64,000 bases of DNA, from NCBI GenBank assembly GCA_963752285.1, contig CAVVXN010000005.1:1536001-1600000 (forward strand). The letters run 5' to 3'. This stretch comes from an uncultured Planctomycetota bacterium. Its GTDB lineage: Bacteria; Planctomycetota; PLA2; JAEUHO01. Both the position numbers and the translations under genes were made by a program. Position 1 is the first letter of the stretch; the number at the start of each line of letters is the position of its first letter. This document shows, piece by piece, positions 7,601-61,324 of the stretch. The notes beneath the pieces are model-generated. The model was given only the letters and a program-made list of their open reading frames with translations, was not told the origin of the DNA and made no database searches.

Positions 7601-7727
7601 GGGCGCGCTCCATACCCCCCCCGAGGGTCCGGGACGCTCGAGGGGAACGGAGCGGAGGAGCGGAGCGCGCGGCGCGCCACGCGCGCGCTCGTCCGCACCA
7701 GGGACACCCGTCGCCGCGCGGAGAGCT

Positions 7728-9725
7728 TCATCGGACGCCGTCCTCCAGGAGAGAGAGCGCGCGCAGGAGCTCGCCGACGCTCCACGCCTGGGCGACCGCG
7801 CCCCGCGGCCGGTGCGGCGCGTCGCCGTCGAACGCCTCGGAGACCTGGAGCAGCCCGGCCTCGTCCACCACGTGCGGACGAAACGCGTCGATGAGCGCCC
7901 GCAGCGCGGTCCGCCGCCGCCGGGTCGCGCCGTGGGCGCGGAGTGACGCCTCGACGTAGAAGCCGAGGAGCCACGGCCACACGGTCCCCTGGTGGTACGC
8001 GCCGTCGCGGTCCGCGGGCCCGCCCTCGTACCGCCCCCGGTAGCGCGGGTCGTCGGGCGCGAGGGTGCGAAGCCCGCGCGGCGTCAGCAGGCGAGCGTCC
8101 GCCACCGCGAGGATCGAGGCGCGCATCCGCCTCGTGAGGGGGCTCGGGTCGAGTGCGGCGGCGATCACCATGTTGGGCCGGACGCTCGCGTCCTGGACGC
8201 CGTCCTTCCAGACGTCGGCCAGGTGGCCGGCCTCCGGCATCCAGAACCGGTCGAGGAACGCGCGGCGCGCGCGGCGTCGCACCTCGTCGAAGCGGCGGGC
8301 GGCCTTCGCGTCGCCCTCGGCCCGCGCGAAGCGCACGAGCAGATGGAGCATCTGGTACCAGAGGGCGTTCACCTCCACCGGACATCCGTCGCGGGGCGTC
8401 ACCGGCCGACCGTGGACCCGCGCGTCCATCCACGTGACGTTGGCGTCGGCCGAGCCGACGACGAGGAGTCCCTCGCGGTCGGCCCGCACGGGGGACGTCC
8501 CCGAGAGGTGGCGCAGCGCGATCTCCTCGAGGGCCGCGCGGAACGCTCGAACGACCCGCGCGGGCTCCCCGGCGACGCGTTCGAGGCGGCCGACGGCCGA
8601 GGCGAACCACAACGCGGCGTCGGCGGCGCCGTACGAGCTCGCCGCGGGCGTCCCGCCCAGGACGTTCGGCAGCGCGCCGTCGGAGAGGTACGGGAGGAGG
8701 CCCTCGAGCGCCGCGGCCGCCTCGGCGACGCGACCCCGCGCGAGGAGGAGGCCGGGGATCGAGATCGCGGTGTCTCGCCCCCACTCGGAGAACCACGGGT
8801 ACCCCGCGACGACCCCCGTCCGGCCGCCCGGCGCGCGCACCAGGAAGTCGTCGGCCGCCCGGTCGAGGAGCCCGCGGAGCCCCGGCCGGAGGGCGGCCCG
8901 CGCGGCGCGGCGGTCGGCGAGCGTCTCGGCGAAGAGGCGCCCGGGGTCCGCCGGCGCGTGATCGAGCGCCGCCGCCACCACGACCGCCTCGCCCGGTCGG
9001 AGTGCGACGTGGATCCAGCCCGGGGAGAACGCGTCCTCGTGCGCGTCGAACCCGCGCGCTCGCTCCTCGAGGAGCTCGACCCGGCGGTACCAGCAGGGCG
9101 CCGCCTCGAAGCGCGCGTCGCCGCCGCCGACGCGGAAGGCGAGGGCCGGGAGCTCGGGGTACGGCCTCACGACGATCTCGTCGCCGCGACGGAGGACGGA
9201 GGGGTCGAGGTGCGGGTTCTCGAACGTGAGCGCGTGCGCGTCCCGGAAGGCCAGGAGGGGACGGAGCGAGAGCTCGAGGGCCGAAACGTCGTTCGTCGCG
9301 GTGTAGCGGACGAGCACGCCGGGGCTCCCGCGGAGCCGCAGCACCTCGCGCGTCATGCCGAGGCCCGACCGCTCGTACCTCGCGACCGGGTGGGGCTCGA
9401 GCGAGAAGGAGCAGAGCGCCTGGTAGCCGTCGGGGTGCCACGTCCCCGGATAGCGTCCCGTGGACAGGTGCATCGCCTGACCGGGACCGCGGAGCACCTC
9501 CTCGTAGCGCGTCAGGAACACGTGGCGCGACCTCTGCCCCTCGGGCGTCGCGACGAGGAGGCCGTGGTACCGACGCGACGGGCAGAGCAGGACGGTGGAC
9601 GACGCGTAGCCGCCCTCGCCGTCCGTCTCGAGCCACTCGAGGGAGAGCCCGTCCTCGGGGGGCGCCCAGCGCGCGCGGCCGAACGACGCGAGGGCGTCGT
9701 CGGTGGCGGCGCGGGGATCGGGCAT
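7728..9725 (-). CDS. Glycogen debranching enzyme, amylo-alpha-1,6-glucosidase (GH133-type, GDE_N + GDE_C)
   Basis: EWLETDGEGGYASST, RRYHGLL, AGYPWFSEWGRDT, TWMDA, VEVNALWY, YHQGTVWPWL, AQAWSVGE. Confidence 0.93.
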   Translation of the reverse strand: MPDPRAATDDALASFGRARWAPPEDGLSLEWLETDGEGGYASSTVLLCPSRRYHGLLVATPEGQRSRHVFLTRYEEVLRGPGQAMHLSTGRYPGTWHPDGYQALCSFSLEPHPVARYERSGLGMTREVLRLRGSPGVLVRYTATNDVSALELSLRPLLAFRDAHALTFENPHLDPSVLRRGDEIVVRPYPELPALAFRVGGGDARFEAAPCWYRRVELLEERARGFDAHEDAFSPGWIHVALRPGEAVVVAAALDHAPADPGRLFAETLADRRAARAALRPGLRGLLDRAADDFLVRAPGGRTGVVAGYPWFSEWGRDTAISIPGLLLARGRVAEAAAALEGLLPYLSDGALPNVLGGTPAASSYGAADAALWFASAVGRLERVAGEPARVVRAFRAALEEIALRHLSGTSPVRADREGLLVVGSADANVTWMDARVHGRPVTPRDGCPVEVNALWYQMLHLLVRFARAEGDAKAARRFDEVRRRARRAFLDRFWMPEAGHLADVWKDGVQDASVRPNMVIAAALDPSPLTRRMRASILAVADARLLTPRGLRTLAPDDPRYRGRYEGGPADRDGAYHQGTVWPWLLGFYVEASLRAHGATRRRRTALRALIDAFRPHVVDEAGLLQVSEAFDGDAPHRPRGAVAQAWSVGELLRALSLLEDGVR

Positions 9726-23123: not shown

Positions 23124-24042
23124 AACGGGGGTCTCGGGGCTGCTTCGCCCTCGACGGCACGAGGAAGCCCCCCCACGCGAGCCCGAGGAGCGCCAGCGGG
23201 ACCGCCGCCAGGAGGTCCGCCGCGTAGTGGTAACGGAGCCAGAGCGTCGCGACCGTGATCGCGCACGCGGCGACGGTGGCGACGCGGCCGTACCGCGGCG
23301 CGAGCCGGAGGGCCGTGATCGCGACGACCCACGAGAGGGCCGTGTGCCCGCTCGGGAAGCAGTCGGGCGTCACCTGGTGGTCCGCCACGAACGAGCGGAG
23401 GGCCCCGGTCGCGACGTAGCCGCGTACCGGATGCGCGAACCAGCCCGGGAAGGCCTGCCAGGGCCCGACCGCGGGGACCAGGCAGTAGAGCCCGTAGTTC
23501 ACGAGATACGTGCCGACCCAGGCCACGAGGTACGCCTCGACCGTCGCCCACCCCACCACGCCCCGCCACGCGCGCGAGAGGAGGAGGAAGAGGAGCCCGG
23601 CGCCCCAGGCGTAGTAGGAGACGTAGGCGAGCTGCAGCACCTCGGCGAGGCCCCGGCCGAGCGGCGTCTCCGGCCCCACGACCGGCGAGCGGTCCACTGC
23701 GACGGCGACCTCGCCGTGCGGCAGCACCCCGGAGAGGAGCCGCGCGTCGGCCGCGGCGAGGGACGCGTCGGCGGACGGCCGGCCGAGGGTCCGGATCACC
23801 GACCCGGTGGCCCCGTAGTGGACGCCGATGCCGACGCCCAGCGCGACGGCGAGCAGAAGGCGCGGCACGCGGCCGCCCCGGAGCCGCACGACGAGCCAGA
23901 GCGCGGCGGTCGCGGCGCTCGTCGCGAGAGACGCGCCGATCGCCGCGTCGAGGGGCGCGAGCAGGGCGTAGAGCGGCCCGATCAGGACCGCCAGGACCGC
24001 GAGCAGCCCGAACGCGAACGCGGCCGGGCGCGGCGCGCTCAC
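23110..24042 (-). CDS. PAP2-family (PAP2_3/AUR1-like) membrane phosphoesterase
   Basis: PAVGP, DCFPSGHT, RYHYAADL; GTG start overlaps the upstream stop (GTGA). Confidence 0.85.
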   Translation of the reverse strand: MSAPRPAAFAFGLLAVLAVLIGPLYALLAPLDAAIGASLATSAATAALWLVVRLRGGRVPRLLLAVALGVGIGVHYGATGSVIRTLGRPSADASLAAADARLLSGVLPHGEVAVAVDRSPVVGPETPLGRGLAEVLQLAYVSYYAWGAGLLFLLLSRAWRGVVGWATVEAYLVAWVGTYLVNYGLYCLVPAVGPWQAFPGWFAHPVRGYVATGALRSFVADHQVTPDCFPSGHTALSWVVAITALRLAPRYGRVATVAACAITVATLWLRYHYAADLLAAVPLALLGLAWGGFLVPSRAKQPRDPRFSSR

Positions 24043-24611
24043 GCCCGGACGATCGCGAAGGCCTCGATCTCGATCAGGAGGTCGCTCCGGCAGAGCCGGG
24101 CCTGGATGCCCGTGGACGCGGGCAGCGGGTCGAGACCCGCGGCGGCGTAGAAGAGCGTGCGGACGCGGTTGAACTCGTCGTAGTCCCGCTCGATGTCCCG
24201 GAGGTAGCAGGTGGTGCGCACGATGTCGTGCCAGGTGGCGCCCTCGGACGCGAGGAGCCGGGTGATGTTGCGGAAGGTCCGCCACGCCTGCGCCCGCAGG
24301 TCGCCGACGTAGACGGTCGTGCCCTCCGAGTCGATGCTCGCGGTGCCCGAGATCCAGAGGATCCGCTGTCCCGCCTCGATCGAGACGGCGAGGCCGCGCG
24401 TGAACGACGAGGGAAGGTCGTAGCAGTACGCCTCGTTCAGCACGTCGTGAGACGTGATGACCGAGCGCGCCACCTGGGCGCGACCCGGCGGGAGCGCGAC
24501 GATCCGACCGGCGTCGTCGAGGATCCCGAGGAGCCGCATCTCCTGGCGCTCGCCCTCCGAGTAGCCCGCGTCCACCTCGCCCAGCACGCGCCGCTCGGTC
24601 GCCTCGCCCAT
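24039..24611 (-). CDS. RidA/YjgF superfamily protein (FkbO/Hyg5-like subtype motifs)
   Basis: SFTRG, WISGTASI, TTCYLRD, ARLCRSDLLIEIEA; AGGAGG SD. Confidence 0.85.
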   Translation of the reverse strand: MGEATERRVLGEVDAGYSEGERQEMRLLGILDDAGRIVALPPGRAQVARSVITSHDVLNEAYCYDLPSSFTRGLAVSIEAGQRILWISGTASIDSEGTTVYVGDLRAQAWRTFRNITRLLASEGATWHDIVRTTCYLRDIERDYDEFNRVRTLFYAAAGLDPLPASTGIQARLCRSDLLIEIEAFAIVRA

Positions 24612-25086: not shown

Positions 25087-26010
25087 ATGCCCTCCGTCCC
25101 CCCCGCCCGACCCCGGAGCCGTCGATTCCGTCCGACCCCGCTCGGCGGGCTCCTGCTCCTCCTGCTCTCGGCGTGCGGGGGCCGCACCGACGACCGGGCG
25201 CCCCCGATCGACGGCGCTGCGCCGGCGCAGCGCATCGTCTCGCTCACGTGCACCGCGTCGATGACCCTCGAGGCGCTCGACGCCCTCGACCGCGTCGTCG
25301 CCGTCGAGGAGGACTGCCCGGTCCACGGCCCGGATGGCGTCCTCCGGATCCGCAACGACGACCACCCGGGAAAGCTCGCACCGATCAACCTGGAGTCGAT
25401 CCTCGCCCTCCACCCCGACGCCGTGGTCGCCCGCCCCGACCTCCGGCAGGCCCTCGACGGCAAGGGGCTTCGCGTCCTGTGGTCGCCGGCGTACACGACG
25501 CTCCAAAACCTGCCGGGCTTCGTGCGCGACCTGGGCGCCCTGATCGGGGCGTCGGACCGCGCCGAGCGGATCCTCACGGGGATGGAGGCCGAGGAGGCGG
25601 CGCTTCGGGCGAAGACCGCGGGCCTCCCGCGAACGAAGACCTACCTCGAGCGGAGCGGCCTCGGCTGGACGTACGGGTCGAACAACATCGTGGACGACAT
25701 GATCACGCTCGCCGGCGGCACGAACATCGCCGGCGCCGTGGACAAGTCGTCCGTCCGCCTGACCCAGGAGGCCATCTTCGCGGCGGACCCGGACGTGATC
25801 ATCCTCGGACCGTTCGCCGACCCGAAGGAGGAGGTCCTGAAGCGGCCTGGTTGGAAGGACCTCCGCGCGGTCCGCGAGGGTCGGTTCTACCAGGTGCCGT
25901 TCGACCACCAGGAGGTGACGCTCGGCTGCCCGCAGTGCATCGAGGCATGCAAGACGTACTTCCTCCCGTGGCTGCACCCCGAGCTCGGCTCCGAGGCCGG
26001 GCCGCACTAG
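25087..26010 (+). CDS. ABC transporter substrate-binding lipoprotein, Fe-siderophore/haem/cobalamin (BtuF-like) family
   Basis: Lipobox LSAC, QRIVSL, NLESILALHPD, LAGGTNI, WKDLRAVREGRFY, LHPE end. Confidence 0.88.
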   Translation: MPSVPPARPRSRRFRPTPLGGLLLLLLSACGGRTDDRAPPIDGAAPAQRIVSLTCTASMTLEALDALDRVVAVEEDCPVHGPDGVLRIRNDDHPGKLAPINLESILALHPDAVVARPDLRQALDGKGLRVLWSPAYTTLQNLPGFVRDLGALIGASDRAERILTGMEAEEAALRAKTAGLPRTKTYLERSGLGWTYGSNNIVDDMITLAGGTNIAGAVDKSSVRLTQEAIFAADPDVIILGPFADPKEEVLKRPGWKDLRAVREGRFYQVPFDHQEVTLGCPQCIEACKTYFLPWLHPELGSEAGPH

Positions 26011-26027
26011 CCCTCAGCGAGGTCGAG

Positions 26028-27050
26028 CTGCGCGCGTCGTCCTGCCGAGCCCTGCTCCTCGTCCTCGTCGGTGCGGTCCTCACCGTCCTGGCGGGGCTCG
26101 CCACGCTCTTCCTCGGCGTGGTGCCCGTCCCCGCGCACGCGGTCGTCCGGGCGCTCGGGGACCTCGTGGGCCTCCCGGGTCACAGCGCGGCCCCCGACTT
26201 CATGCTGGTCGTGGACATGCGGCTGCCGCGCGCCGTCGGAGCGATCACCGCGGGCGCCGCGCTCGGCGCGTCCGGGTGCATGCTCCAGGCGCTCCTGCGA
26301 AACCCGCTCGCCAGCCCGTTCGTGATCGGCGCGGCGCAGGCCGCGGGGTTCGGCGCCCTCCTGGCGATCCTCCTCGGCTGGCCGTACATGCCGATGCTCG
26401 CGATCGCCTTCGGGATGTCCGTGTTCGCGGCGTGGCTCGTGCTGAGCCTCGCGAGGAGCCGGCAGAGCCTCCCCACCGAGTCCGTCGTGCTGACCGGTAT
26501 CAGCGTGAGCCTCTTCTTCTTCGCCCTGCAGGGGCTGCTGCGCTTCCTCGCCCACGACCGCGGCGTCCTCGCACGGATGGCGCTCTGGGTGCAGGGCGGT
26601 CTCTGGGACGCCGCGTGGGTGTCGCTCCGGTTCCTCGCGCCGCTCACCGTGATCGCCGTGGTCGCCACGATGTTCCTCGCGCGACGCCTCGACCTCCTGG
26701 CGCTCGGTCAGGAGGACGCCCAGCGCCTGGGCGTCTCCGTGCGCCGCACCGGGACGCTCGCCCTCCTCCTCGCGTGCCTTCTCGCGAGTCTCGCGGTGTG
26801 CACGGCGGGCGTGCTGGCCTTCGTCGGGCTGATCGTCCCGCACGCGGCCCGCCGCCTCGTGGGCCCGGGCCACGCGGTGCTGCTGCCGGCGAGCGCCTTC
26901 CTCGGGTCGTTGCTCGTCCTGGCGACGGACAGCGTCGCGAGGACGGCGCTGCCGCCGCAGGAGATCCCGCTCTCGGTCGTGACGTCGCTCTTCGGCGTTC
27001 CCGCATTCCTCGTCCTCATGCGCTCGCTGCGGGCCCGGAGGAGCTCCTGA
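26028..27050 (+). CDS. FecCD/BtuC family ABC permease (start approximate)
   Basis: MRLPRA, LQALLRNPLASP, LALGQEDAQRLG, FVGLIVPH. Confidence 0.88.
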   Translation: MRASSCRALLLVLVGAVLTVLAGLATLFLGVVPVPAHAVVRALGDLVGLPGHSAAPDFMLVVDMRLPRAVGAITAGAALGASGCMLQALLRNPLASPFVIGAAQAAGFGALLAILLGWPYMPMLAIAFGMSVFAAWLVLSLARSRQSLPTESVVLTGISVSLFFFALQGLLRFLAHDRGVLARMALWVQGGLWDAAWVSLRFLAPLTVIAVVATMFLARRLDLLALGQEDAQRLGVSVRRTGTLALLLACLLASLAVCTAGVLAFVGLIVPHAARRLVGPGHAVLLPASAFLGSLLVLATDSVARTALPPQEIPLSVVTSLFGVPAFLVLMRSLRARRSS

Positions 27051-27865
27051 TGCTCGCCGCCGAGCACGTCTCCTTCGCGTACGGCGCTACGCCCGTGCTC
27101 GAGGACGTGTCCCTCGAGCTCCCCGAGGGCCGGCTCGTCGGCCTCGTCGGTCCGAACGGCGGCGGGAAGTCCACGCTGCTCCGCTGCCTCTACCGGGCGC
27201 TCCGCCCGGACCGCGGCGCGATCCGCCTGCGGGGACGGGACGTCTCCGAGCTCTCCTCGCGAGAGCTGGCCCGGGACGTCGGCGTCGTCCCGCAGGCGTG
27301 CCACGTGGTGTTCCCCGTGAGCATCGCGTACTTCGTGGGACTCGGACGCTTCGCGCGGGAGTCGTTCTTCGGCGGGCCCTCCTCCGCCGACCGGGCGGCC
27401 GTGGACCGCGCGCTCGACGAGCTGGGGCTTCGTCCGATCGCCGACCGCCCGATCGACGAGATCAGCGGCGGCGAGTTCCGCCGGGCCCTGATCGCCCAGG
27501 CGCTGGCGCAGGAGCCGTCCGTGCTTCTCTTCGACGAGCCGGTGCAGCAGCTCGACCTCCTCCACCAGCTGCAGGTGATGGAGTTCGCCCGGCGCTTCAC
27601 GCGGCGGGGCGGGACGGCGGCGCTCGTCGTGCTCCACGATCTCGGCCTCGCGGCCCGCTACTGCGACACGATCGCGCTGCTGTACGAAGGCCGCGTCGTG
27701 GGGTGCGGACCGCCCGAGGTGGTGCTCACCCCGGAGTCCGTGCGACGGGCGTACGGCGTCGAGGCGAAGATCAGCCGATGCGATCGAACGGGCGCCGTGG
27801 AGATCGTCGCGATCGCGCCCGCCGAGGACGTCGGCGGGCCGGGCGGTCAGAGCGTCTCGAGGTAG
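27050..27865 (+). CDS. ABC transporter ATP-binding protein (FecE/BtuD-like)
   Basis: GPNGGGKS, ISGGE, LLFDEP, VLHDL; TGATG overlap with the permease. Confidence 0.92.
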   Translation: MLAAEHVSFAYGATPVLEDVSLELPEGRLVGLVGPNGGGKSTLLRCLYRALRPDRGAIRLRGRDVSELSSRELARDVGVVPQACHVVFPVSIAYFVGLGRFARESFFGGPSSADRAAVDRALDELGLRPIADRPIDEISGGEFRRALIAQALAQEPSVLLFDEPVQQLDLLHQLQVMEFARRFTRRGGTAALVVLHDLGLAARYCDTIALLYEGRVVGCGPPEVVLTPESVRRAYGVEAKISRCDRTGAVEIVAIAPAEDVGGPGGQSVSR

Positions 27866-29688
27866 AGGACCAGGTCCGCGAGCTCCTCGTCGTCGAGGTC
27901 GCTCACGTCCCCGTGCCGGCCGTCCCGGTCCGCGAAGATCGCCCCGAGCGTCGTCGCGCGGCCGTCGTGGAGGTACGGGGCCTTGCGCCCGATCCCCTCG
28001 AGATGGGGAACGTCGAAGCGGCCGTCGGGATCGGTCGGACCGCGCGTGCCGACGTCCGTGGTCTGCCGGTTCGTGTAGTGCGGCGGCGCGTGACACGTCA
28101 CGCAGCGCCGCCCCGGCCCGATCCGCGTGCCGTCGTCGTGGCGACTCCGCTCGAAGATCGCCTGGCCCCGCGCGACGCGAGCCCGCGTCTCGGGATCGGC
28201 GCGCGCGAGGTCCAGGAGCGGTCGGGGCGGCGGCAGCGAGAGCAGGTACGTGGCGAGGTCGTGGAGCTTGGCCTCGGGGATCGGGTCGGCCCGCGTCAGC
28301 ACCATCGCGAAGCGCACGCCGCACTGGCGCTCGACCGTAGGGTTCGTGCCCTTCCACTTGAATGGCGCCGTGCCTTCGAGGCCCTCGAGGCTCCGGTTCA
28401 GGACCACCTCGCGACCGACGCCGTCCACCTCGAAGTCGTACGTGAGGCCGTCCGTTCCGGCCTCGGGATGGCAGGAGCGGCACGAGAACGCCCCCTGGAA
28501 GCAGTACGACGCGTCCGCGAACACCCGTTCGCCCGCGTGCACGGGGTCCTCGGGTACGCGCGGTCCGACCGCGACGCGTGACACCACGCCCCGGTCGGCG
28601 TCGAGGAGCGCGACCGTGTCGTCGAGCCGTTCCGACACGGCCACGAGCGCCCGGCCCCCGCGCCGGACGACGGCCAGGCCGCGCGGGTCGTCCCCCGTCG
28701 CGTGGCGAACGGCGACGATCGTCGCCGCACGGTCCATCCGCTCCGGCTCGTCCGGCGTCTGGGCGAGCCGGACGGCCTCCCGCAGGTCGATCACGGCCAC
28801 CTCGTCGGTCCCCGAGGCGGCGACGAAGGCGCGGTTCCCGTCGGGCGCCACGGCGATGCCCGTCGGGTCGGCGAACCCGCGCGACGGCGAGGCGAGCGGC
28901 GCGAGACGGACCGACCCGTCCGCGTCCACCATCGCCAGGACGGCGGACATCACCCACCCGCGCGCGACCGAGACGATCGGCAGCAGGTTCCGAACGCGGA
29001 GGAAGGGCACGAGCAGGCGACGCCCCTCGGCGTCGAACGCCGCGGCCTCCGCCATGTGACACGAGGGGATCTCGACCGTTCGCTCGAGCGCGCCGCTCGC
29101 GTCGAACAGGTCGATCCGTCCGCGCGGCTCCTCCTCGGGCGGGCCCGGCTCGGCGCGCCGTGACACGACCGCGAGCCGCCCCGTACCGGGCGCCCGGGCG
29201 ACGGCGAAGGGCTCGCCCCCGAGCGCGACGCGCTCCGTCACGACCGCGCGGACCGCGTCCACGCGCGCGGCGGCGCGCGCGACCGGCAGCGCGACCAGGA
29301 GCCACGCGCCGGTCCGGTCGAACTGGAGCCCCTCCGGCTCGGCGCCGACGTCCACGCGCGCGCGGACGGCCCCGGACGGGAGGTCCACGAGGACGACCGC
29401 TCGCTCCGGACCGAGCGACACCGCGAGCGTCTTCCCGTCCGCGGAGGCGGCCAGACCGCGCGGCGTGCCGCCCGTCTCGACGAACCGCTCCACGCGCCCG
29501 CCGGCCACGTCGATCACCGCCACCCGCCCGACGGGCCCGCACGCGGCGTAGCAACGCGCGCCGTCCGCGCTCGCGGCGAGCGCCCACGGCACGGCGTGGC
29601 GCGGCGGCGGCGGCTCGCCCGCGCCGCGGCGGGAGGCCACGAGGGCGAGGAGCGCGACGGCGAGGGCGACGACGGCACGACGTTTCAC
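27847..29688 (-). CDS. Secreted YVTN/YncE-type beta-propeller + di-haem cytochrome c (CCP/MauG-like); hydrazine synthase beta-gamma fusion-like
   Basis: Signal peptide, propeller repeats (PRGLAASADG, PEGL, PTGIAV, PRGLAV); CRSCH at 28468-28482, CVTCH at 28090-28104, APYLHDGRA. Confidence 0.85.
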   Translation of the reverse strand: MKRRAVVALAVALLALVASRRGAGEPPPPRHAVPWALAASADGARCYAACGPVGRVAVIDVAGGRVERFVETGGTPRGLAASADGKTLAVSLGPERAVVLVDLPSGAVRARVDVGAEPEGLQFDRTGAWLLVALPVARAAARVDAVRAVVTERVALGGEPFAVARAPGTGRLAVVSRRAEPGPPEEEPRGRIDLFDASGALERTVEIPSCHMAEAAAFDAEGRRLLVPFLRVRNLLPIVSVARGWVMSAVLAMVDADGSVRLAPLASPSRGFADPTGIAVAPDGNRAFVAASGTDEVAVIDLREAVRLAQTPDEPERMDRAATIVAVRHATGDDPRGLAVVRRGGRALVAVSERLDDTVALLDADRGVVSRVAVGPRVPEDPVHAGERVFADASYCFQGAFSCRSCHPEAGTDGLTYDFEVDGVGREVVLNRSLEGLEGTAPFKWKGTNPTVERQCGVRFAMVLTRADPIPEAKLHDLATYLLSLPPPRPLLDLARADPETRARVARGQAIFERSRHDDGTRIGPGRRCVTCHAPPHYTNRQTTDVGTRGPTDPDGRFDVPHLEGIGRKAPYLHDGRATTLGAIFADRDGRHGDVSDLDDEELADLVLYLETL

Positions 29689-30839
29689 TTGCCCGTCCCC
29701 CCGGTGAGGTCGGCCGGCTCGGAGCGCACGGCTTCAGGCCGGCGGTTCGGCGGCGCGGTCGTCGGGTCCTCGTGACACCCGATGCAGGCGCGGACCTCGT
29801 TCGGCCGGACCCAGAAGGGCGTACTCCCCTCGACGACCACGCTCCCGTCGGGCCCGACGAGGTCGAGCAGCAGCGGACGGTCCGCCGGCACGCGCGCGAA
29901 GAACGAACCGTCGGCCGCGAGGGGGGCGTCGCCGAGCAGGTCGCCGTCCGGTCGCGCGCCCGACCGGAAGGGCCCGCGAAGCGCGGTCAGGCGCACGCGC
30001 GCGCCGCGTGCGCCGGCCGCGCGCGCGTCGATGGCGAAGATCCGCCCGGCCGTGCCGCCCGCCACCACGACGCTCAGGTGTCCCTGAGGACGCGCGCGGA
30101 CGCGAACGGGGAGCCACCGGACGAAGCGCCGCCCGGGCGGCGGCGCGGGGCCGGGGACCGTCGTCGGCGTCGCGGGCGTCTCCTCGGCATCGGGAAGGGC
30201 CGCCGCGCCGGTCCCGTCGGGGAACACCGCGAACGGCACGAGCGCGTTCGCCGCGGGCGTCCACGCGTCGTAGCGGATCCGACCGTCGGCGAGCGCGGCG
30301 GGATCGACGTCGAAGCCCGCGCCGAACGTGATCCGCTCGGGTGTCCCGCCGGCGGTGCCGACGGCGATCGCGTACGCCGGCGCGCCGGCGACGGGTCCCT
30401 CGGCCGCCACCTGGATCACGCACGCGATCCGGCCGTCCGCGAGCACGGCGGGCTCGGCGAGGTCCGACGGCGCGGCGAGCACGACGCGCGGCGCGCCGCC
30501 CTCGAGGTCGCACGCGTAGACCGCGTAGGGCGCGCCCGCCGTCGGCTGCGCGGTGAAGTAGACCGTCCGCGCGGAGGCGTCGAGGGCGGCGCCGCCCGCC
30601 GCGAAGAGACCGGCCGAGACCTCGCGGGTGCGCTCGGGGTGCCCGGGCTCGAGGAGCAGGAGCCGCGCGCCGGCGGGGTAGCGCTCCTCGGGGACCGCGC
30701 GGGCCCCTTCGGCGCCGGCCGGCACCTCGGTGACGAGGACCCGGTCCCCGACGGCGGCGAACGGCGGCGGCGGACGGCCGCAGCCCAGGGGCGCCGCGGC
30801 GAGCACGGCGAGCGCGGCGAGGACGGCGAGACGCCACAT
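29685..30839 (-). CDS. Lipoprotein with TolB-like propeller blades and hydrazine synthase alpha middle domain (mono-haem)
   Basis: Lipobox PLGC; RITFG..DVDPAALADGRIRY..W...PDGTG; ADGSFFARVPADRP...WVRPNEVRACIGCHE (CXXCH at 29772-29786). Confidence 0.82.
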   Translation of the reverse strand: MWRLAVLAALAVLAAAPLGCGRPPPPFAAVGDRVLVTEVPAGAEGARAVPEERYPAGARLLLLEPGHPERTREVSAGLFAAGGAALDASARTVYFTAQPTAGAPYAVYACDLEGGAPRVVLAAPSDLAEPAVLADGRIACVIQVAAEGPVAGAPAYAIAVGTAGGTPERITFGAGFDVDPAALADGRIRYDAWTPAANALVPFAVFPDGTGAAALPDAEETPATPTTVPGPAPPPGRRFVRWLPVRVRARPQGHLSVVVAGGTAGRIFAIDARAAGARGARVRLTALRGPFRSGARPDGDLLGDAPLAADGSFFARVPADRPLLLDLVGPDGSVVVEGSTPFWVRPNEVRACIGCHEDPTTAPPNRRPEAVRSEPADLTGGTGK

Positions 30840-30956
30840 GGTCGAGGCCCCACGATACGTCCCCGCCCCTCCGGGCCGGCCGCGCGGCGGGAGCGTTCGG
30901 CCCCCGGGCGCTCCCGCCGCGCGGGTCGGATACCCTCGACCGGTCAGGTCCGCCCG

Positions 30957-32252
30957 ATGGACGTCGTCCCCCTCGATCCGCGCCGCAACCCCGGCTTCCT
31001 CAAGCTCGACCTCTTCTGTCGGGGCGCGCGGCTCGATCCCTCGTGCGCGGTCGAGGACGACGGAGGCCGACCCGTGCTTCGCGCCCGGGCGGGGCTCGGC
31101 TCCGGACTCGAGCTCGTGCTCGCGCACGGGATCCACGTCAACGTGCCCGTGACCGAGCCCTTCGCGGCGAGGAGCCCGTACGCCATCCGCCGGGAGGTGG
31201 ACGCGCGGGGCCGCGCGCGGTACGTGCTCCTGCACGACGGGCGGGTGGTGACGACGGTGCGGCTCGCGCCGCGGCCGCGCTGGTACGACGAGCGGACGCG
31301 CTCGGGTCGGGCGATGCGTCGCGTGGGCACGCTCCAGGGCACGTACCTGGCCGTGTACCCGGCGGAGGTCTGCCACTTCTGGGTGAAGGGGCCCGAACGC
31401 CCCGCCCGCGAGAACTGCCGCTTCTGCTCCGTGGGGCTGAACCTCGGCGCGGACGAGGAGCCGGAGAAGAGCGTCGACGAGGTCCTGGAGGTGGTGCACG
31501 CCGCGCGACGCGAGAGCCGTATCACGTACGTGGACTTCAACACGGGCCACTACGACGGTTCCGAGTACCTCTCGATCCTCGAGCCGTACGTGCGCCGGGT
31601 GAAGCGGGAGACCGGTCTGCTCGTCGGCGTGCAGACGCCGCCCTTCGCCGACCCGACCGGGTACCGGCGCCTCCGCGACATGGGCGCGAATCGGGTGAGC
31701 TTCTGCTTCGAGCTCTTCGACCGCGAACGGTTCGAGACCCTCTGTCCGGGGAAGGCGCGGGTCTACGGCCTGGACGGATACCTCCGGGCGATCGAGCACT
31801 CGCTCGAGGCCGCCGCCGCGGGGCCGCGCACGGAGCCGTGGGTCGTGAACGGCGAGCTCATCGCCGGGCTCGAGTCCCCCGGCAAGAGCATCGAGGCGAT
31901 CGAGTGGCTCACGGCGCGCGGCGCCATCCCGACCGTCTGCGTGTTCCGCCCGCTCACGGGAACGAACCTCGCCGACCTCGAGCCGCCCGCGACGGAGGAC
32001 CTGATCCCCGTGTTCGAGGCGCTCTGGGCGAGGACCATGGAGCGGGGCCTTCCCATCGGGGTCGCGCCCGGGATCCACGTGAGCCTCGTGCTGCTGCCCG
32101 ACGAGGCGCGCTGGCTCGTCCGGGACCCGGCGCTCCTCCGCGCGTTCGCCGGGCGGGAACGGCGCCGCCGGATCCAGAAGGCCGCGTTCGCCACCGCGTT
32201 CTACGGCCGCCTCGCGCTCCGCCGGCGGGCGGCGTCGCCCGCACGCGGATAG
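30957..32252 (+). CDS. Radical SAM protein (MSMEG_0568/biotin-synthase-like fold) with CX14CX2C motif
   Basis: CHFWVKGPERPARENCRFC, RAGLGSGLEL, FELFDRERF...CPGK, LIAGLE, PTVCVFRPLTGT. Confidence 0.85.
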   Translation: MDVVPLDPRRNPGFLKLDLFCRGARLDPSCAVEDDGGRPVLRARAGLGSGLELVLAHGIHVNVPVTEPFAARSPYAIRREVDARGRARYVLLHDGRVVTTVRLAPRPRWYDERTRSGRAMRRVGTLQGTYLAVYPAEVCHFWVKGPERPARENCRFCSVGLNLGADEEPEKSVDEVLEVVHAARRESRITYVDFNTGHYDGSEYLSILEPYVRRVKRETGLLVGVQTPPFADPTGYRRLRDMGANRVSFCFELFDRERFETLCPGKARVYGLDGYLRAIEHSLEAAAAGPRTEPWVVNGELIAGLESPGKSIEAIEWLTARGAIPTVCVFRPLTGTNLADLEPPATEDLIPVFEALWARTMERGLPIGVAPGIHVSLVLLPDEARWLVRDPALLRAFAGRERRRRIQKAAFATAFYGRLALRRRAASPARG

Positions 32253-34193: not shown

Positions 34194-34274
34194 ACGCGCG
34201 GGCCTCGGGACCGGTGCACGTCGCGCCGGCCGCCGGCGCGGGACCGTTCCCCGCGTCGTACCATGACCCGATCC

Positions 34275-35369
34275 ATGACCGAAGACGCCTCCCCCTTCAC
34301 GGTACCCACGCGCTGGTGGCACCGGCTCGACGACGGTCGCGTGCAGTGCGACCTCTGCCCCCGCCTCTGCCGACTCCACGACGGGCAGCGGGGCTTCTGC
34401 TTCGTCCGCGCCGCGCGGGACGGCGCCGTCGTGCTCGAGAGCTGGGGCCGCGCGAGCGGGTTCTGCGTGGACCCGATCGAGAAGAAGCCGCTGGACCACT
34501 TCCTCCCGGGAACCGCGGTGTTGTCGTTCGGCACGGCCGGCTGCAACCTGGGCTGCCGCTTCTGCCAGAACTGGGACATCTCGAAGTCGCGCGAGATCCA
34601 GACGCTCTCCGAGCCCGCCCGGCCCGAGACGATCGCCGCCGCCGCCGAGCGTCTCGGGTGTCGGAGCGTCGCGTTCACGTACAACGACCCCGTGATCTTC
34701 TCCGAGTACGCCGTGGACGTGGCCCGCGCGTGCCACGATCGGGGCGTCAGGACCGTGGCGGTCACGGCGGGCGAGATCCTGCCGGAGCCGCGCGTCGAGC
34801 TCTTCGCCCACATGGACGCGGCCAACATCGACCTGAAGGGCTTCACGGAGCGGTTCTACAAGGTCCTCTGCTCCGCGAGCCTCGCCCCGGTTCTCGACAC
34901 GCTCGAGTACGTGCGCCACGAGACCTCCACCTGGCTCGAGATCACGACCCTCCTGATCCCGGGGTGGAACGACGCGGACGCCGAGATCGACGAGATGACG
35001 ACGTGGGTCGCCGATCGCCTCGGCGTGGACGTCCCCCACCACTTCACGGCCTTCCACCCCGACTGGCGCCTCCGCGACGTGCCGGCGACGCCGCCCGAGA
35101 CGCTCTCGCGCGCGCGGGAGATCGCCCGAAGGAACGGCCTTCGTCACGTGTACACCGGAAACGTCTACGACCCCGAGGGGCAGAGCACGCGCTGCGCGGG
35201 GTGCGGGGCGGTCGTGATCGGGCGATCCGGGTACGAGGTGACGGCCTGGCGTCTCGACGCGGTGGGCCGGTGCCGCGCCTGCTCCGAGCGCCTTCCGGGC
35301 GTCTTCGAGGAGGCCCCGGGGACCTGGGGCGCGCGTCGCCTCCCGGTCCGGCTCTCCTCCGCCGTCTGA
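34275..35369 (+). CDS. amrS: AmmeMemoRadiSam system radical SAM enzyme
   Basis: CDLCPRLC, DPIEKKPL.HFLPG, GCNLGCRFCQNWDIS, YTGNV; alternative start at 34263. Confidence 0.92.
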   Translation: MTEDASPFTVPTRWWHRLDDGRVQCDLCPRLCRLHDGQRGFCFVRAARDGAVVLESWGRASGFCVDPIEKKPLDHFLPGTAVLSFGTAGCNLGCRFCQNWDISKSREIQTLSEPARPETIAAAAERLGCRSVAFTYNDPVIFSEYAVDVARACHDRGVRTVAVTAGEILPEPRVELFAHMDAANIDLKGFTERFYKVLCSASLAPVLDTLEYVRHETSTWLEITTLLIPGWNDADAEIDEMTTWVADRLGVDVPHHFTAFHPDWRLRDVPATPPETLSRAREIARRNGLRHVYTGNVYDPEGQSTRCAGCGAVVIGRSGYEVTAWRLDAVGRCRACSERLPGVFEEAPGTWGARRLPVRLSSAV

Positions 35370-35996: not shown

Positions 35997-37010
35997 TCAC
36001 GCCTCCGGCGGGACGCGCCGCGCGAGGAGGAAGGCTTCGTCCGCCTCGAGGAGGCCGTCGCCTCGCCGCCAGCGGAGCCCGGCGACGCGGGATCCCTCGT
36101 CCGCGAGGCGGACGGCGGTCAGGGCCGCGCCCCGGAGGTCGGCACCCTCCAGGTCCGCGCCACGCAGGTCCGCGCCCTCGACGTCGGCGCCCCGAAGGTC
36201 CGCACCGCGAAGCGACGCGCCCCTCAGGTCCGACCGGGAGAGGTTCGCCTCTCGGAGATCCACCCCGTCGAGCCGGGCTCCGCGCAGGTCGCTCGCGCGG
36301 ATCGCGAGCCCTCGCAGGTCGCGGTCGAGCGGATCCCAGCCCGCGAGGTCCACGCCGAGCAGCCGCCGACCGCGGAAGGCGCCGAGTCGTCGCGCGGTCC
36401 GGAGTCGGAGGACGTCTTCGGGCCGGATGGTCCCGGTCACGAAGCGCTCCTCGCGACTCGGGTCGGCGTCGTTGTGGTAGCCGGCCTCGCGCTCCCAGTA
36501 GCCGAGCGGGTCGGTGGCGAGGAGCTCGACGCGCCGCAGCCACTTGAGGCTCTTGTAGAGGTAGCGGCCGGGCGTCAGCGTGCGCACCGGCCCGCCGTGC
36601 TCGAGGGGAAGGGCCCCCCCCTCGAGACCATGGACCACCCAGGTCCCCTCGCGGGCGATCCGAACGGGGATCGTCGTGTCGTGCCCGCGTCGCGAGTGCG
36701 CCACGAGGCGCACGAACCGGGCCTCGTCGGCGGCCCGGGCGCGATCGAGCCACCGGGCCAGGGGGAAGCCCACGAAGGCGACCGCGCGGCGCGTCCAGCC
36801 CGTGACGCAGTGGAGGTCGAACGTCAGCGCCGTCGCGGGTTCTCGACGAAGCTCCGCGATCGAGACCGAGAAGGGCGCTTCGACGAGTCCCGTCACCTCG
36901 ACCACGAGCCCGTCGGGATCGACGTCATCGCCGAAGGGGGTCGCCTCGCCCACGAGCGGGAAGCGGCGCGTCTCGACCTGACCGGGCGGGAGGGACGACT
37001 CGTCGGGCAT
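35997..37010 (-). CDS. Molybdopterin-dependent oxidoreductase (sulfite-oxidase/MsrP-like) fused to pentapeptide repeats
   Basis: LPPGQ, DLHCVTGW, LPLEHGGPVR, YLYKSLKWL, GYWEREAGYH; then SDLRG-ARLDG-VDLRE-ANLSR-SDLRG-ASLRG-ADLRG... Confidence 0.88.
   Translation of the reverse strand: MPDESSLPPGQVETRRFPLVGEATPFGDDVDPDGLVVEVTGLVEAPFSVSIAELRREPATALTFDLHCVTGWTRRAVAFVGFPLARWLDRARAADEARFVRLVAHSRRGHDTTIPVRIAREGTWVVHGLEGGALPLEHGGPVRTLTPGRYLYKSLKWLRRVELLATDPLGYWEREAGYHNDADPSREERFVTGTIRPEDVLRLRTARRLGAFRGRRLLGVDLAGWDPLDRDLRGLAIRASDLRGARLDGVDLREANLSRSDLRGASLRGADLRGADVEGADLRGADLEGADLRGAALTAVRLADEGSRVAGLRWRRGDGLLEADEAFLLARRVPPEA
36120..36330 (-). repeat. Pentapeptide A(D/N)LXX coding repeat (15-bp period)
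   Basis: Recurring CAGGTC/GAGGTC units on the + strand encode xDLRG repeats on the - strand; bounds approximate. Confidence 0.75.
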
Positions 37011-43754: not shown

Positions 43755-44888
43755 TCAGTCGGCGCCGTAGAGGACCTCGTGTCCGTCCTTCACGACCCAG
43801 ACCTTGTAGTAGTCGGACACCCTCACGTCGCCCTTCTCGTCGAAGGACATGCGTCCGACGGGCGTGTCGAACGTGCCCGCGTGGATCGCGGCCGCCACCT
43901 GCTTGCCGTCCGTCGAGCCGGCCTTCTCGATGCCGTCGAGGAGGATCTGCGTCGCGGCGTACGCGTAGATCGCGTAGGGCCCCGGGTCGCCGTGGAAGCG
44001 GGCCTGGTACTTCGTCACGAACCCGGCGTACCCGGCGGCCTGCGTGGTGTCCGGGAAGGTGGTCAGCGTCCCGTCGCCGCCGGGCCCGACCTTGTCGATG
44101 AAGTCCTTCTGGTAGCCGTGGACGCCGTCGCCGCTCATGAGCGGAGCCTCGATGCCGAGCTGGCGCGCCTGGATCAGCATGGGCGCGGCCTGCTCGTAGA
44201 TGCCGCCGAAGTACCAGACGTCCACGTTCGCGTCCCGGAGCTTCGTGAGGTACGGGCGGAAGTTTCGCTCCGTGACGTCGAAGCCCTCGCGGATGACGAC
44301 GTCCGCGCGGCCGTTCAGGGCCGAAGCGCAGCCGTCGGCCAGGCCGGCGCCGTACGCGGTCTTGTCGTCGTAGATCGCCACCCGCTTGGCGTGGAGCGTG
44401 TCGGCGATGAAGTCGGCCGCGGTCTTCGCCTGCTGGTCGTCGCGTCCGCAGACGCGGAAGACGTCGTCGTAGCCGCGCTCCGTGATCGTCTCGTTGGTGG
44501 ACGCCGGTGTGATCGTGACGATGCCGGCCTGGTGGTACGTGCGGGAGGCGGGGATCGTGCAGCCGGAGTTGAAGTGGCCCACGACGCCGACCACCCCCTC
44601 GTCCACCAGGCCCGACGCGACGGCCGTGGCGTTCTTGTCCTGGGCCTCGTCGTCGCGGAACACCATCGCCACGGACCGCCCGAGCACGCCCCCGGCCGCG
44701 TTCCGGTCCTCCACGGCGAGCCGGGCACCGTCCTCGAGGTCCTTGCCGTTGCGGGCCTGGCCGCCCGACATGGGGCCCGCGACGCCGATCTTGATCGCGC
44801 CCGTGCCGGAGTCGCCCTCTCTCCCGCCGCAGCCGGGGAACCCGAGCAGCGCGACGGAGAGGAAGGCGAGCGGGAGGAGGTGCTTCAA
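43755..44888 (-). CDS. livK: Branched-chain amino acid ABC substrate-binding lipoprotein (LivJ/K family)
   Basis: TTG start, lipobox FPGC, IKIGVAGPMSG, VVGHFNSGCTIPAS, DKTAYG. Confidence 0.9.
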   Translation of the reverse strand: MKHLLPLAFLSVALLGFPGCGGREGDSGTGAIKIGVAGPMSGGQARNGKDLEDGARLAVEDRNAAGGVLGRSVAMVFRDDEAQDKNATAVASGLVDEGVVGVVGHFNSGCTIPASRTYHQAGIVTITPASTNETITERGYDDVFRVCGRDDQQAKTAADFIADTLHAKRVAIYDDKTAYGAGLADGCASALNGRADVVIREGFDVTERNFRPYLTKLRDANVDVWYFGGIYEQAAPMLIQARQLGIEAPLMSGDGVHGYQKDFIDKVGPGGDGTLTTFPDTTQAAGYAGFVTKYQARFHGDPGPYAIYAYAATQILLDGIEKAGSTDGKQVAAAIHAGTFDTPVGRMSFDEKGDVRVSDYYKVWVVKDGHEVLYGAD

Positions 44889-45199
44889 CGGTCGGCTCCG
44901 GTCTCGGGGATGGGGCGGGACGATTCTACTGAGGTGACCGGACCGACGGGACCGCCCGTTTCTCGGGCGCACGTCGGGCCCGGCGGCGCGGTCCGCGGGT
45001 CGGTGGAACGAGGTCCGCCGGACGCGCGAGCGAGACCCGCGGGACGTTTTGCGCGCCCGCGGCCGGCGGCGAGGGGCGCGGCGAGCCGGGCGCCTGCGCG
45101 ATCGAGGACCGATCCCTCCTCGGGCCCGGCGGGGTGGCGACGGGGCGGGCGCCCCCTTTCGATCACGGCCCGCGCGCGCCCAACCGGCCCCGGGACCGG

Positions 45200-51966: not shown

Positions 51967-53124
51967 TCAGCGGTCCGAGAGCTCCGGCGCCGCGGCCGCG
52001 GCCGCCTCCTCGCGCTCGGCGCGCGCGACCGCGACGGCGAGTCGTGTTCGCTGGGGGTCCACGAAGCCCCGGCCCTGCTCGACCTGCCGCCGCAGCGTGT
52101 CGAGGAAGAATGGCACGTGGAACGGGGCCTCGCGCCACGCCCCCACCGGGGGCGGGCGCGGGGTCTCGTGCGCGAGGGCCGCGAGCACGCTCTCGACGAC
52201 CGCGACCTGCTCCGGGTGCGGCGCGATCTGGCCGGCGAACGTCTCGTCGAACGCGCGGGCCGACGCCGGGTCGAGGCCCTGCAGTCGGAGTCGGTCCACG
52301 CCCTTCGCGAGCTCGGCGAGAAGGGCCTCCCGCGCCGTCTGACGTGCCCGCTCGGCTTCCGCGTCGGGATGGGCGGCGTCCCACCGCGCGAGCGCGGCCT
52401 TCGCCTCCTCGAGCGCGCGTCGGGCCTGGTCGAGCCGGGCGCGCGCCGCGACCACCTTCGGGTCCACCGCGGGCGGGATCGCCTCGCCGTCCGGACCGGG
52501 GAGCGGCGTCGGCCCCGTCTCGGGCGCCGGCACGAGAGGCGTCGGTCCGGAGGCGTCCGACGACGAACGACTCGGAACGCTCCGCGGCGTCTCGTCCGTC
52601 CCGGTCGGCGTACCGACCCCGGCCGGCGTCTTCGCGCGTGCGTCGTCGGCACTCCCGCCCTCGCCGCCCCCTTGCGTGGCGAACACCACGCCCACGACCG
52701 CGGCCGCGACCACCGCGACCGCGAGCAGCGGCCAGCGACGCGCGGGGGCCGCCACCGCCGGGGCCCCGGGCTCGGCCGCCCCCGGCCGTCGCGTCGTCTT
52801 GGTGGTGAGACGGGTGCTCTGGTGGCACCGGGGACAGTTGTACGACGTGCCGAACAGGTCGGCCGACACCGGGGCCGTGTTGCCGCACCACGGGCAGTCG
52901 AACGCCACCCTTTGCTCTTCGTGGTGCGGCGCGTCGGGCGGCGCGTCGAGGAGACCGGCCCGGCGCACGGTGTGTTCGGTGAGCTTGGTCTTCTGGCCGC
53001 ACTCCGGGCACTCGAAGCTCTCGCCCACGTGGTCCGGGGCGACACCGCAGATGGCGCCGCACCAGGGGCAGTCGAAGGTGAGGTGCCCCGGGCCGTAGGC
53101 TTCCTGGTCGCTCGATCGATGCAC
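51967..53124 (-). CDS. Membrane-anchored protein with tandem zinc-ribbon domains
   Basis: FDCPWCG..CPECG and FDCPWCG..CPRCH, TM helix, Pro/Thr linker, helical C-terminal domain; start uncertain. Confidence 0.72.
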   Translation of the reverse strand: MHRSSDQEAYGPGHLTFDCPWCGAICGVAPDHVGESFECPECGQKTKLTEHTVRRAGLLDAPPDAPHHEEQRVAFDCPWCGNTAPVSADLFGTSYNCPRCHQSTRLTTKTTRRPGAAEPGAPAVAAPARRWPLLAVAVVAAAVVGVVFATQGGGEGGSADDARAKTPAGVGTPTGTDETPRSVPSRSSSDASGPTPLVPAPETGPTPLPGPDGEAIPPAVDPKVVAARARLDQARRALEEAKAALARWDAAHPDAEAERARQTAREALLAELAKGVDRLRLQGLDPASARAFDETFAGQIAPHPEQVAVVESVLAALAHETPRPPPVGAWREAPFHVPFFLDTLRRQVEQGRGFVDPQRTRLAVAVARAEREEAAAAAAPELSDR

Positions 53125-53301
53125 ACGGACCTCCAGCGGAGGCCGGCCCCGTCCCTTCGCCGAGCGGGCACGTGGGCGGGCCGCCCCCGCCACTCCGTCC
53201 CATTCTACAGAGACGGCACCGCCGGAGGCGAGCCCTCCCTCGCGACCCGCGGGCCCGGGGCGGTGCGCCGTCCCCCGGCGGGTCGGTCGTCCCGGGGCCC
53301 C

Positions 53302-61142: not shown

Positions 61143-61324
61143 GCTCCCGAGGATAGATCGTCGGCTTCCGGCCCCAAGCGCGGACGAGGCGCCTTCCCGC
61201 CCGACACCCGTTCGCACGCGAAGCGTCTTCGTGCCTCGCCGCGGCGGGCGGGTCGCGCGCGGCGTACCATCGCGGGGGGCCGCGCGGACGACGCCGGACG
61301 CGGGGCCCGGAGGAGCCCGGCCGG

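Follow-up and report, generated by a model that had tools for sequence, protein, structure and literature searches.

A reduced three-haem gene pair from an uncultured Planctomycetota bacterium is a distant, non-anammox relative of hydrazine synthase

To our knowledge, hydrazine synthase (HZS) of anaerobic ammonium-oxidizing (anammox) bacteria was long thought to have no relatives. Its non-anammox homologues bear on the origin of anammox and form a large family of haem enzymes. In metagenome-assembled genomes (MAGs) of the Phycisphaerae UBA1845, the text of PMC10732223 (2023) reports an hzsA-like gene immediately upstream of a fused hzsBC-like gene, and it proposes a broad and widespread family of HZS-like enzymes with other substrates. 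Co-located HZS homologues were sorted into clades I–IV by Hagglund et al. (2025; PMC12758564), whose text describes a reversed gene order, an FG-GAP/CRTAC1 gene and two binding-protein genes. Clades II and III are described there as lacking haem alpha-II and the last ~100 residues; a gap at Tyr591 and a tryptophan at the gamma His144 position are also described. Extra haem motifs are given as eight for clade I, one for clade III and none for clade II. The conclusion drawn in that paper is that the non-anammox homologues are unable to make hydrazine. Here we describe a gene pair of this kind in a 64,000-nucleotide stretch of DNA from an uncultured Planctomycetota bacterium (contig CAVVXN010000005.1, positions 1,536,001 to 1,600,000; hereafter the window, in whose own numbering all positions are given). 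The pair, an alpha-like gene directly upstream of a fused beta-gamma-like gene, most probably belongs to the non-anammox family of HZS homologues; it is a true but distant relative of anammox HZS, and not itself a hydrazine synthase. How the family is built, in which order its genes lie and which catalytic residues it lacks have already been published, as far as the texts of PMC10732223 and PMC12758564 describe them.

Both genes, and hence all features of the pair given below, lie on the minus strand. The first gene (29685..30839) encodes a predicted HZS-alpha-like lipoprotein of 384 residues, composed of a shortened TolB-type propeller and the HZS-alpha middle domain with one c-type haem motif. 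Its translation begins with MWRLAVLAALAVLAAAPLGC, and the signal peptide read from it (30780..30839) ends in a lipobox-like LGC (Cys20), from which lipidation of the chain may be expected; a lipobox-like pattern occurs in 95 of 176 full-start alpha-like relatives, and cysteine is common at that alignment position. The second gene (27847..29688) starts with GTG and encodes 613 residues, comprising a Sec-type signal peptide, a 7-bladed YVTN propeller and a di-haem domain. At the junction the minus strand reads ...ggcaaGTGAaacgt..., where the alpha-like stop codon and the beta-gamma-like start codon overlap in GTGA (29685..29688). Third-position GC content of at least 0.9 across 27650-30800 backs both frames, the window as a whole having a GC content of 0.71-0.77 throughout; a 1014-residue open reading frame (ORF) in the alpha-like frame was rejected as a high-GC artefact upstream of the ATG. 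The pair is a stand-alone transcription unit, flanked by a diverging radical S-adenosylmethionine (SAM) gene and a converging ATP-binding cassette (ABC) ATPase gene. A promoter and terminator scan of 27500-31300 found nothing, and an Rfam scan of the window gave no match.

The alpha-like protein contains the motifs RITFG, LADGRI, PDGTG, DGSFFARVPADRP and WVRPNEVRACIGCHE, and a single CxxCH, the haem-binding motif CIGCH (residues 352-356; 29772..29786), which profile alignment equates with that of HZS haem alpha-I. The beta-gamma-like protein has two, CRSCH (residues 403-407; 28468..28482) and CVTCH (residues 529-533; 28090..28104), the equivalents by alignment of haems gamma-I and gamma-II, as well as PYLHDG at residues 571-576. 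The two proteins thus hold three c-type haem motifs in total, and both carry export signals. A preliminary description of this DNA had claimed two minus-strand genes joined by a GTGA overlap, a half-length alpha-like chain with one haem, and a three-haem pair of the HZS family; translations and junction sequence agree with the first of these, the 384 residues and lone CxxCH with the second, and the three motifs, the export signals and the subunit matches described below with the third, while every motif quoted there is present in the translated proteins.

The relationship of the alpha-like protein to HZS alpha is seen at several levels. The Pfam model HZS_alpha (PF18582) matches residues 301-357 (29769..29939), including DGSFF...WVRPNEVRACIGCHE, with 51 bits against a cut-off of 26.6. 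When the PDB was searched with a profile of the alpha-like family, built from 35 relatives, HZS alpha (5C2V_A) was matched at E 4.7e-22. Three collinear stretches make up this match, and in the last of them the CxxCH of the family falls on the C..CH whose final residue is number 560 of the chain; the next matches were designer propellers (E 8e-9) and TolB (2e-4). The AlphaFold model of the protein has a mean predicted local distance difference test score (pLDDT) of 84.8 and a predicted template-modelling score (pTM) of 0.80, and in a fold search it found chains 5C2V_D and 5C2V_A first (E 1e-14, query-based template-modelling score TMq 0.72-0.73), TolB reaching TMq 0.27-0.36.

For the beta-gamma-like protein, the best NCBIfam model is that of the hydrazine beta-gamma fusion (hydrazine_BC). 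The family profile matched HZS beta (5C2V_B) at E 9.9e-47 in a single stretch, 10-349 of 352, and HZS gamma (5C2V_C) at E 7.6e-28, compared with 6e-19 for YncE, 3.7e-10 for MbnH and 5.5e-10 for cytochrome c peroxidase (CCP). The Pfam model CCP_MauG (PF03150) scored 28 bits against a cut-off of 25.6, over residues 383-456 only. In a fold search 5C2V_B again came first (E 7.6e-23, target-based TMt 0.83), a match that speaks for the propeller only, since the di-haem part is poorly modelled. Sequence identity to the 5C2V chains in the fold alignments is 13-18%. By sequence profiles and predicted folds, both proteins are homologous to HZS subunits.

The same arrangement recurs in other genomes. Of the 611 pattern matches given by a scan of one genome per species, at least 357 were found to encode a relative; the 80 best loci were retained for comparison. 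They span Planctomycetota, Acidobacteriota/Thermoanaerobaculia, Verrucomicrobiota, Gemmatimonadota, Bacteroidota, Chlorobiota and Binatia, the Bacteroidota loci including those of the cultured Flavobacteriaceae Maribacter arenosus and Lutimonas saemankumensis. By a hidden Markov model of the alpha-like family, 75 of the 80 have an alpha-like gene upstream, on the same strand; of the five misses, four (L025, L033, L059, L075) have a beta-gamma-like gene that begins at a contig end. Distance matrices of the two proteins are strongly correlated (Mantel r 0.94, 63 loci, 0/999 permutations as high), which shows co-inheritance, not contact; the pair has been inherited as a unit across at least seven phyla. 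The remaining locus, L076 (6869-8719), is alone in having upstream sequence without an alpha-like gene. Its beta-gamma-like protein aligns to the profile only from a late position and has no N-terminal haem motif; upstream, on the opposite strand, is a gene for a glycine-cleavage P-protein. Searching 1.84 billion representatives with the alpha-like profile gave 831 clusters at E<=1e-30 and 6588 at E<=1e-10, with matches 315-701 residues long in the best 150 clusters.

These results bear directly on whether the two genes are chance neighbours, that is, a generic TolB-like lipoprotein with a stray CxxCH beside a generic YncE-CCP fusion. It is true that the single alpha-like sequence, searched against the PDB without a profile, finds TolB only, and weakly, and that, with the beta-gamma-like profile, the archaeal YVTN S-layer protein 1L0Q reaches a higher bit total than HZS beta; the latter, however, is because three overlapping repeat matches of 1L0Q add up, whereas HZS beta is aligned in one stretch covering 340 of its 352 residues. 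HZS alpha is first by 8 to 13 orders of magnitude (profile, fold), and the genes are coupled by the GTGA overlap as well as by their recurrence elsewhere. We therefore regard chance association as barely credible and as refuted by the conserved pairing together with profile and fold matches that put HZS first: the resemblance to HZS goes beyond chance. On these points the preliminary description has held up well, both in the HZS-alpha match and in the affinity of the di-haem protein for HzsB and HzsC over generic YncE and CCP proteins, and the pairing it had pointed to is conserved. The rarity and novelty it implied have not survived, as the family is widespread and is treated in the texts of PMC10732223 and PMC12758564.

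Residue conservation was counted in 186 beta-gamma-like and 242 alpha-like sequences. Both CxxCH motifs, Lys444, Trp445, Arg459, His574, Asp575 and His592 are kept in 186/186 of the former. By alignment, Trp445 (28354..28356) stands at the position of HZS gamma His144 (PfKW against PFRH), Cys456 (28321..28323) at that of gamma Cys165, Arg459, three residues further, at that of gamma Asp168, and His592 (27913..27915) at that of the histidine of ...DMHG... in HZS gamma. A conserved loop in a late propeller blade, RVRNLLPIVSVARGWV (residues 231-246; 28951..28998), aligns with the HZS-beta segment KNWLPVCEAENGQV, whose role in HZS we take from the text of PMC12758564; N234, P237, V241, G244 and W245 of the loop are invariant in the family alignment. 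According to the texts of PMC12758564 and PMC12607021, gamma Cys165 forms a third covalent bond to haem gamma-I and Asp168 lies beside its iron; for Cys456, the covalent haem bond itself is a prediction from the alignment. Position 456 is cysteine in 143/186 sequences and aspartate in 43/186, mostly in the three-haem branch to which the Bacteroidota loci belong, so that the extra haem cross-link appears to be lineage-specific. Among the alpha-like sequences, Glu348 is present in 242/242, Arg350 in 239/242, and Cys352, Cys355 and His356 in 241/242 each, while Asp310, Gly311, Ser312, Trp343, Pro363 and Asn365 are invariant or nearly so.

Other features of HZS are missing. In HZS, as PMC12758564 and PMC12607021 describe it, the proximal ligand of haem alpha-I is Tyr591, four residues past the CxxCH histidine. 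The window protein reads CIGCHEDPTT there, with threonine and no tyrosine at His+4, and the five most frequent residues at this position among the 242 relatives are Glu (103), Asn (43), Asp (39), Ala (20) and Gly (12), tyrosine never being dominant. The chain stops 28 residues past the haem motif, and the C-terminal domain with the bis-His haem alpha-II is absent; 239/242 relatives likewise have a single haem motif. Since the pair has neither the Tyr-ligated, zinc-linked alpha-I site nor the alpha-II domain, and since Asp168 and His144 of the gamma subunit are both missing, it is no hydrazine synthase. A reading of the pair as a cryptic hydrazine synthase, or as another enzyme forming N-N bonds from inorganic nitrogen as a minimal anammox-type system in a non-anammox host, could draw on the homology to all three HZS subunits, on the retained equivalent of gamma Cys165 and on the conserved beta loop segment, and yet it seems to us extremely unlikely. 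Besides the losses just listed, the NCBIfam models of the anammox subunits scored far below their cut-offs (NF052339 hydrazine_alpha, 13.4 bits against 800; NF052342 beta-gamma fusion, 70.3 against 1250; NF052341 gamma, 45.8 against 625; NF052340 beta, 44.4 against 560), no hdh or hao gene was found within the 64-kb window, and the family occurs in Flavobacteriaceae, Verrucomicrobiota and other non-anammox lineages. The text of PMC12758564 reaches the same conclusion for the homologues it covers.

Within the family, the window copy is a reduced member: it has a two-haem beta-gamma-like protein, a shortened alpha-like one and no FG-GAP or binding-protein neighbours. Among the 120 beta-gamma-like relatives listed, 87 have a third, N-terminal CxxCH and 33 have two, nine of the latter being N-terminally truncated fragments. 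In a quickly built maximum-likelihood tree (LG+G4; 95 rows, many of odd composition; Shimodaira-Hasegawa-like approximate likelihood ratio support only; seven loci with split or cut genes left out), the window protein falls in a clade of 9 rows, all with two haems (support 100), which is nested in a 27-row clade (support 100) of mostly three-haem forms. Because of this nesting, loss of the N-terminal haem and its anchor is the simplest reading. The alpha-like chain, at 384 residues against a family median of 472, is among the shortest, since it lacks roughly 60-120 alignment columns that most relatives have.

From these features a working scheme can be proposed for the pair as a member of the HZS-homologue family. 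The two proteins would assemble in the periplasm into a complex resembling a single alpha-beta-gamma protomer of HZS, and the lipid anchor of the alpha-like chain may tether it to the membrane. Electrons would enter at the second haem, predicted to be bis-His (His533/His592, with His592 as the candidate sixth ligand), and would then cross over the invariant Trp445 to the first haem, by analogy with di-haem peroxidases and MauG. A small substrate could be turned over at this first haem, which would be held by His407 and probably, like HZS gamma-I, by a third thioether bond, here to Cys456, and whose pocket would be lined by the invariant Arg459. A second site might be formed by loop 231-246 and the His-ligated alpha-like haem with Glu348, Arg350, Asp310 and Ser312, and would be reached through the complex, as in HZS. 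As to the chemistry, we can offer a tentative guess, which we hold to be possible rather than probable: the peroxidase-like gamma module may reduce a small reactive oxidant of the H2O2, NO or NH2OH type.

The genes that accompany the pair elsewhere were ordered by ORF clustering of the 80 loci and by Pfam and NCBIfam scans of examples. The recurring order is an FG-GAP/UnbV_ASPIC gene, the alpha-like gene, the beta-gamma-like gene, a ~400-residue binding-protein-like gene, a Rid/YjgF-like gene, a Peripla_BP_6 gene, a type I-beta 3-deoxy-D-arabino-heptulosonate 7-phosphate (DAHP) synthase gene, a second Peripla_BP_6 gene, and a TPR plus FG-GAP/ASPIC gene. The FG-GAP/UnbV_ASPIC gene is present in 68/80 loci; where there was room for them, the ~400-residue gene, which groups with binding proteins, follows directly downstream in 65/69 loci and the Rid-like gene within 4.5 kb downstream in 49/68. 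DAHP synthase is encoded on the same strand in 37/80 loci (459 bits on NF006421, cut-off 335), for example at 11996-12901 of L066 and 2954-3859 of L037, and in Bacteroidales it stands between two Peripla_BP_6 genes; we know of no link between this enzyme and the haem proteins of the pair. Six loci have the FG-GAP gene placed between the alpha-like and beta-gamma-like genes. In three of them (L035, L047, L053) the beta-gamma-like protein has two haem motifs; in L031 and L034 it has ten in all, eight of them extra and N-terminal, and the split reading of L041 gives seven.

Several observations weigh against the proposed scheme. The third thioether is not essential to the family, given the aspartate found at position 456 in 43/186 sequences. 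An early candidate for the sixth ligand of the alpha-like haem, His254 (PQGHLS), was rejected: it is invariant in the 35 closest relatives, but across the 242 the position holds His in 99, Arg in 65 and Leu in 40. In the di-haem part of the beta-gamma-like model, residues 411-467 and 537-576 have pLDDT values under 50, and values are also low at residues 234-245 of the conserved loop; the putative interface and tunnel are carried over from homology alone. The FG-GAP/ASPIC gene, the three genes resembling type-1 binding proteins, and the Rid-like and DAHP synthase neighbours fit a detoxifying reductase badly, and the window itself is without the FG-GAP and binding-protein genes that accompany most relatives. 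Simple detoxification is disfavoured, because the conserved neighbours elsewhere are non-redox.

The main alternative for the chemistry is an oxidative maturase of the MauG/MbnH type, in which H2O2 or O2 generates a high-valent bis-haem state that acts at a distance on a protein or a small aromatic compound, oxidizing or cross-linking it. The alpha-like chain, the FG-GAP/ASPIC protein or the binding-protein-like proteins would be its target, the alpha-like chain being then a partner or substrate and not a second catalytic site. The conserved cluster does consist mostly of exported non-redox proteins (the FG-GAP/UnbV_ASPIC and binding-protein-like genes counted above), and the family is present in the cultured Flavobacteriaceae Maribacter arenosus and Lutimonas saemankumensis. 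Both of these species are aerobes. Weak matches to the MbnH and MauG models of NCBIfam and to PDB entry 6E1C point the same way, as does the invariant Trp445, located where, according to the text of PMC12758564, CCP and MauG have their electron-hopping tryptophan. Nevertheless, the gamma-like domain is 18 orders of magnitude nearer to HZS gamma than to MbnH or CCP, and its second haem probably pairs with His592, as the alignment with HZS gamma-II would have it, and not with a tyrosine as in MauG. The invariant polar residues Glu348, Arg350, Asp310 and Ser312 at the alpha-like haem suggest a site of its own, and the window retains the pair without the putative targets. Taken together, we consider a maturase unlikely, though worth keeping in view beside the HZS-like enzyme proposed above.

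The haem inventory of the relatives raises another alternative, a pure electron-transfer module in which the pair would be a lipid-anchored three-haem shuttle between the membrane and a periplasmic or outer partner, with no catalysis. The extra N-terminal CxxCH of the 87 relatives mentioned above sits just past an apparent membrane anchor (judged by eye), L031 and L034 carry eight extra haem motifs and the split L041 more, and the second haem is probably bis-His. A mere wire, however, would hardly call for a 7-bladed propeller with a conserved loop; no conserved sixth-ligand candidate adjoins the first haem, whose pocket has the HZS-type cysteine and the invariant arginine, and the N-terminal haem and anchor are precisely what the window copy has lost. 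This reading therefore appears to us quite improbable.

Only three genes of the recurring cluster are kept in the window, namely the pair and the Rid/YjgF-like gene (24039..24611, minus strand; Pfam Ribonuc_L-PSP), which encodes 190 residues from its ATG, a GTG at 24719 being an alternative start. It lies on the same strand as the pair, 3 kb away; no signal peptide was found in its product, which is cytoplasmic. The protein is 69% identical to that of a planctomycetotal copy of the cluster (L037; E 5e-92) and 54% identical to that of Maribacter arenosus (L073), the genome here having 75% GC. Judging from its sequence, the gene is the orthologue of the one conserved downstream of the pair in other phyla and the best-conserved companion. 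Its matches to FkbO/Hyg5-type chorismatases are weak and below threshold (TIGR04444, 37 bits against a cut-off of 325), no more than a lead, and the Atlas groups it with Rid-family hydrolases. No window ORF matched the FG-GAP cluster, and the sole Peripla_BP_6 gene of the window (43755-44972) is 27% identical and part of a Liv-type ABC operon. The stripped context suggests that the pair is self-sufficient, a functional core able to stand alone.

Between the pair and the Rid-like gene lies a three-gene Peripla_BP_2/FecCD/ATPase importer of the iron-siderophore, haem or cobalamin type (25087-27865, plus strand); its last gene, for the ATPase (27050-27865, plus strand), shares 19 bases with the beta-gamma-like gene at the 3' end of the latter. 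On the other side, a radical SAM gene (30957-32252, plus strand; NCBIfam variant_rSAM NF045502) diverges from the pair over a 117-bp spacer, and another is found at 34263-35369 (plus strand); by Pfam a radical SAM gene is also upstream in L071, and ORFs of the same sequence cluster are upstream in L048 and L078. Pfam scans of the window ORFs and inspection of the 52 ORFs supported by third-position GC revealed no hao/hdh, ccm or multihaem families, and the preliminary description had likewise claimed that hao and hdh are absent. The only other CxxCH among the 52 is in a Cys-rich, zinc-finger-like protein of 444 residues (51967-53301, minus strand) with weak matches to DUF7560 and HVO_2753_ZBP, which is not a cytochrome. 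Elsewhere in the window, a 1433-residue ORF (3377-7678, minus strand) combines a glycogen-synthase-type glycosyltransferase, DUF3417 and an alpha-glucan phosphorylase domain and adjoins a glycogen debranching enzyme gene (7728-9725), and at 35997-36950 (minus strand) an Oxidored_molyb molybdopterin-binding domain is fused to pentapeptide repeats. The best non-self match of the malic enzyme (59475-61217, minus strand) is 77% identical and comes from a contig that also carries the nearest relatives of both HZS-like proteins, other matches being at ~70% and from several phyla.

The window thus adds to the family a stripped-down member, with three haems, a shortened alpha chain and none of the usual neighbours besides the Rid-like gene. 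The comparison adds that the pair travels with a well-conserved cytoplasmic Rid-like protein and, in many genomes, also with a type I-beta DAHP synthase; neither gene comes up in the main text of PMC12758564. A literature search found no functional work on the FG-GAP/ASPIC genes that accompany the pair. The cultured hosts Maribacter arenosus and Lutimonas saemankumensis make its function testable. A bolder form of the HZS-like scheme, which we rate as a long shot, would see in the pair a minimal two-site, tunnel-linked haem enzyme with only a Rid-like companion, carrying out a periplasmic conversion of a reactive nitrogen species that has not been described to date; for instance, the gamma-I-like haem might reduce NO to NH2OH and the alpha-like haem might take the conversion further. 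Were this true, the family would be a missing nitrogen-cycle enzyme in Bacteroidota, Verrucomicrobiota, Acidobacteriota, Planctomycetota and Gemmatimonadota, and the nearest living model of the pre-anammox ancestor of HZS.

The closest described systems include the homologues of clades I-III, as presented in the text of PMC12758564. The window pair shares with them the alpha-like gene upstream of a fused beta-gamma-like gene, the two C-terminal haem motifs, the tryptophan in place of gamma His144, and a beta loop without Glu; Tyr591 is missing in both, and with clades II and III the pair shares an alpha-like protein that has the haem alpha-I motif and is devoid of alpha-II and the last ~100 residues. 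It differs from clade III as described there, which has an FG-GAP/CRTAC1 gene upstream and two binding-protein genes downstream, none of which stand beside the window pair, and one extra N-terminal haem motif, which the window copy lacks although it is nested among three-haem forms. The published description of clade I is fitted by the arrangement of L031, L034 and L041. The UBA1845 MAGs are also reported, in the text of PMC10732223, to have hao, nxr-like and other nitrogen-cycle genes, whereas the window shows none, and three Phycisphaerae-type loci of our set (L035, L047, L053) have the FG-GAP gene between the pair, unlike the window. TolB and the YncE/YVTN propellers match the propeller parts only, and more weakly than the HZS subunits by whole-chain profile or fold. 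The di-haem domain resembles CCP, MauG and MbnH (PF03150) in its two CxxCH motifs with a tryptophan between them and in its PYLHDG-type motif; it differs from them in being fused to a propeller, in its HZS-type extra cysteine, in a second haem that is probably His/His and not His/Met or His/Tyr, and in being much closer to HZS gamma. The window pair differs from HZS of Kuenenia stuttgartiensis (5C2V) in the fusion of beta and gamma, in its reversed gene order and in an alpha-like chain half as long, with one haem, no Tyr ligand and no alpha-II domain; no hdh partner gene lies within the 64-kb window. The same three modules are nevertheless present in both, the Kuenenia enzyme being the best PDB match for each, and its haem alpha-I, gamma-I and gamma-II motifs as well as gamma Cys165 align with the window pair.

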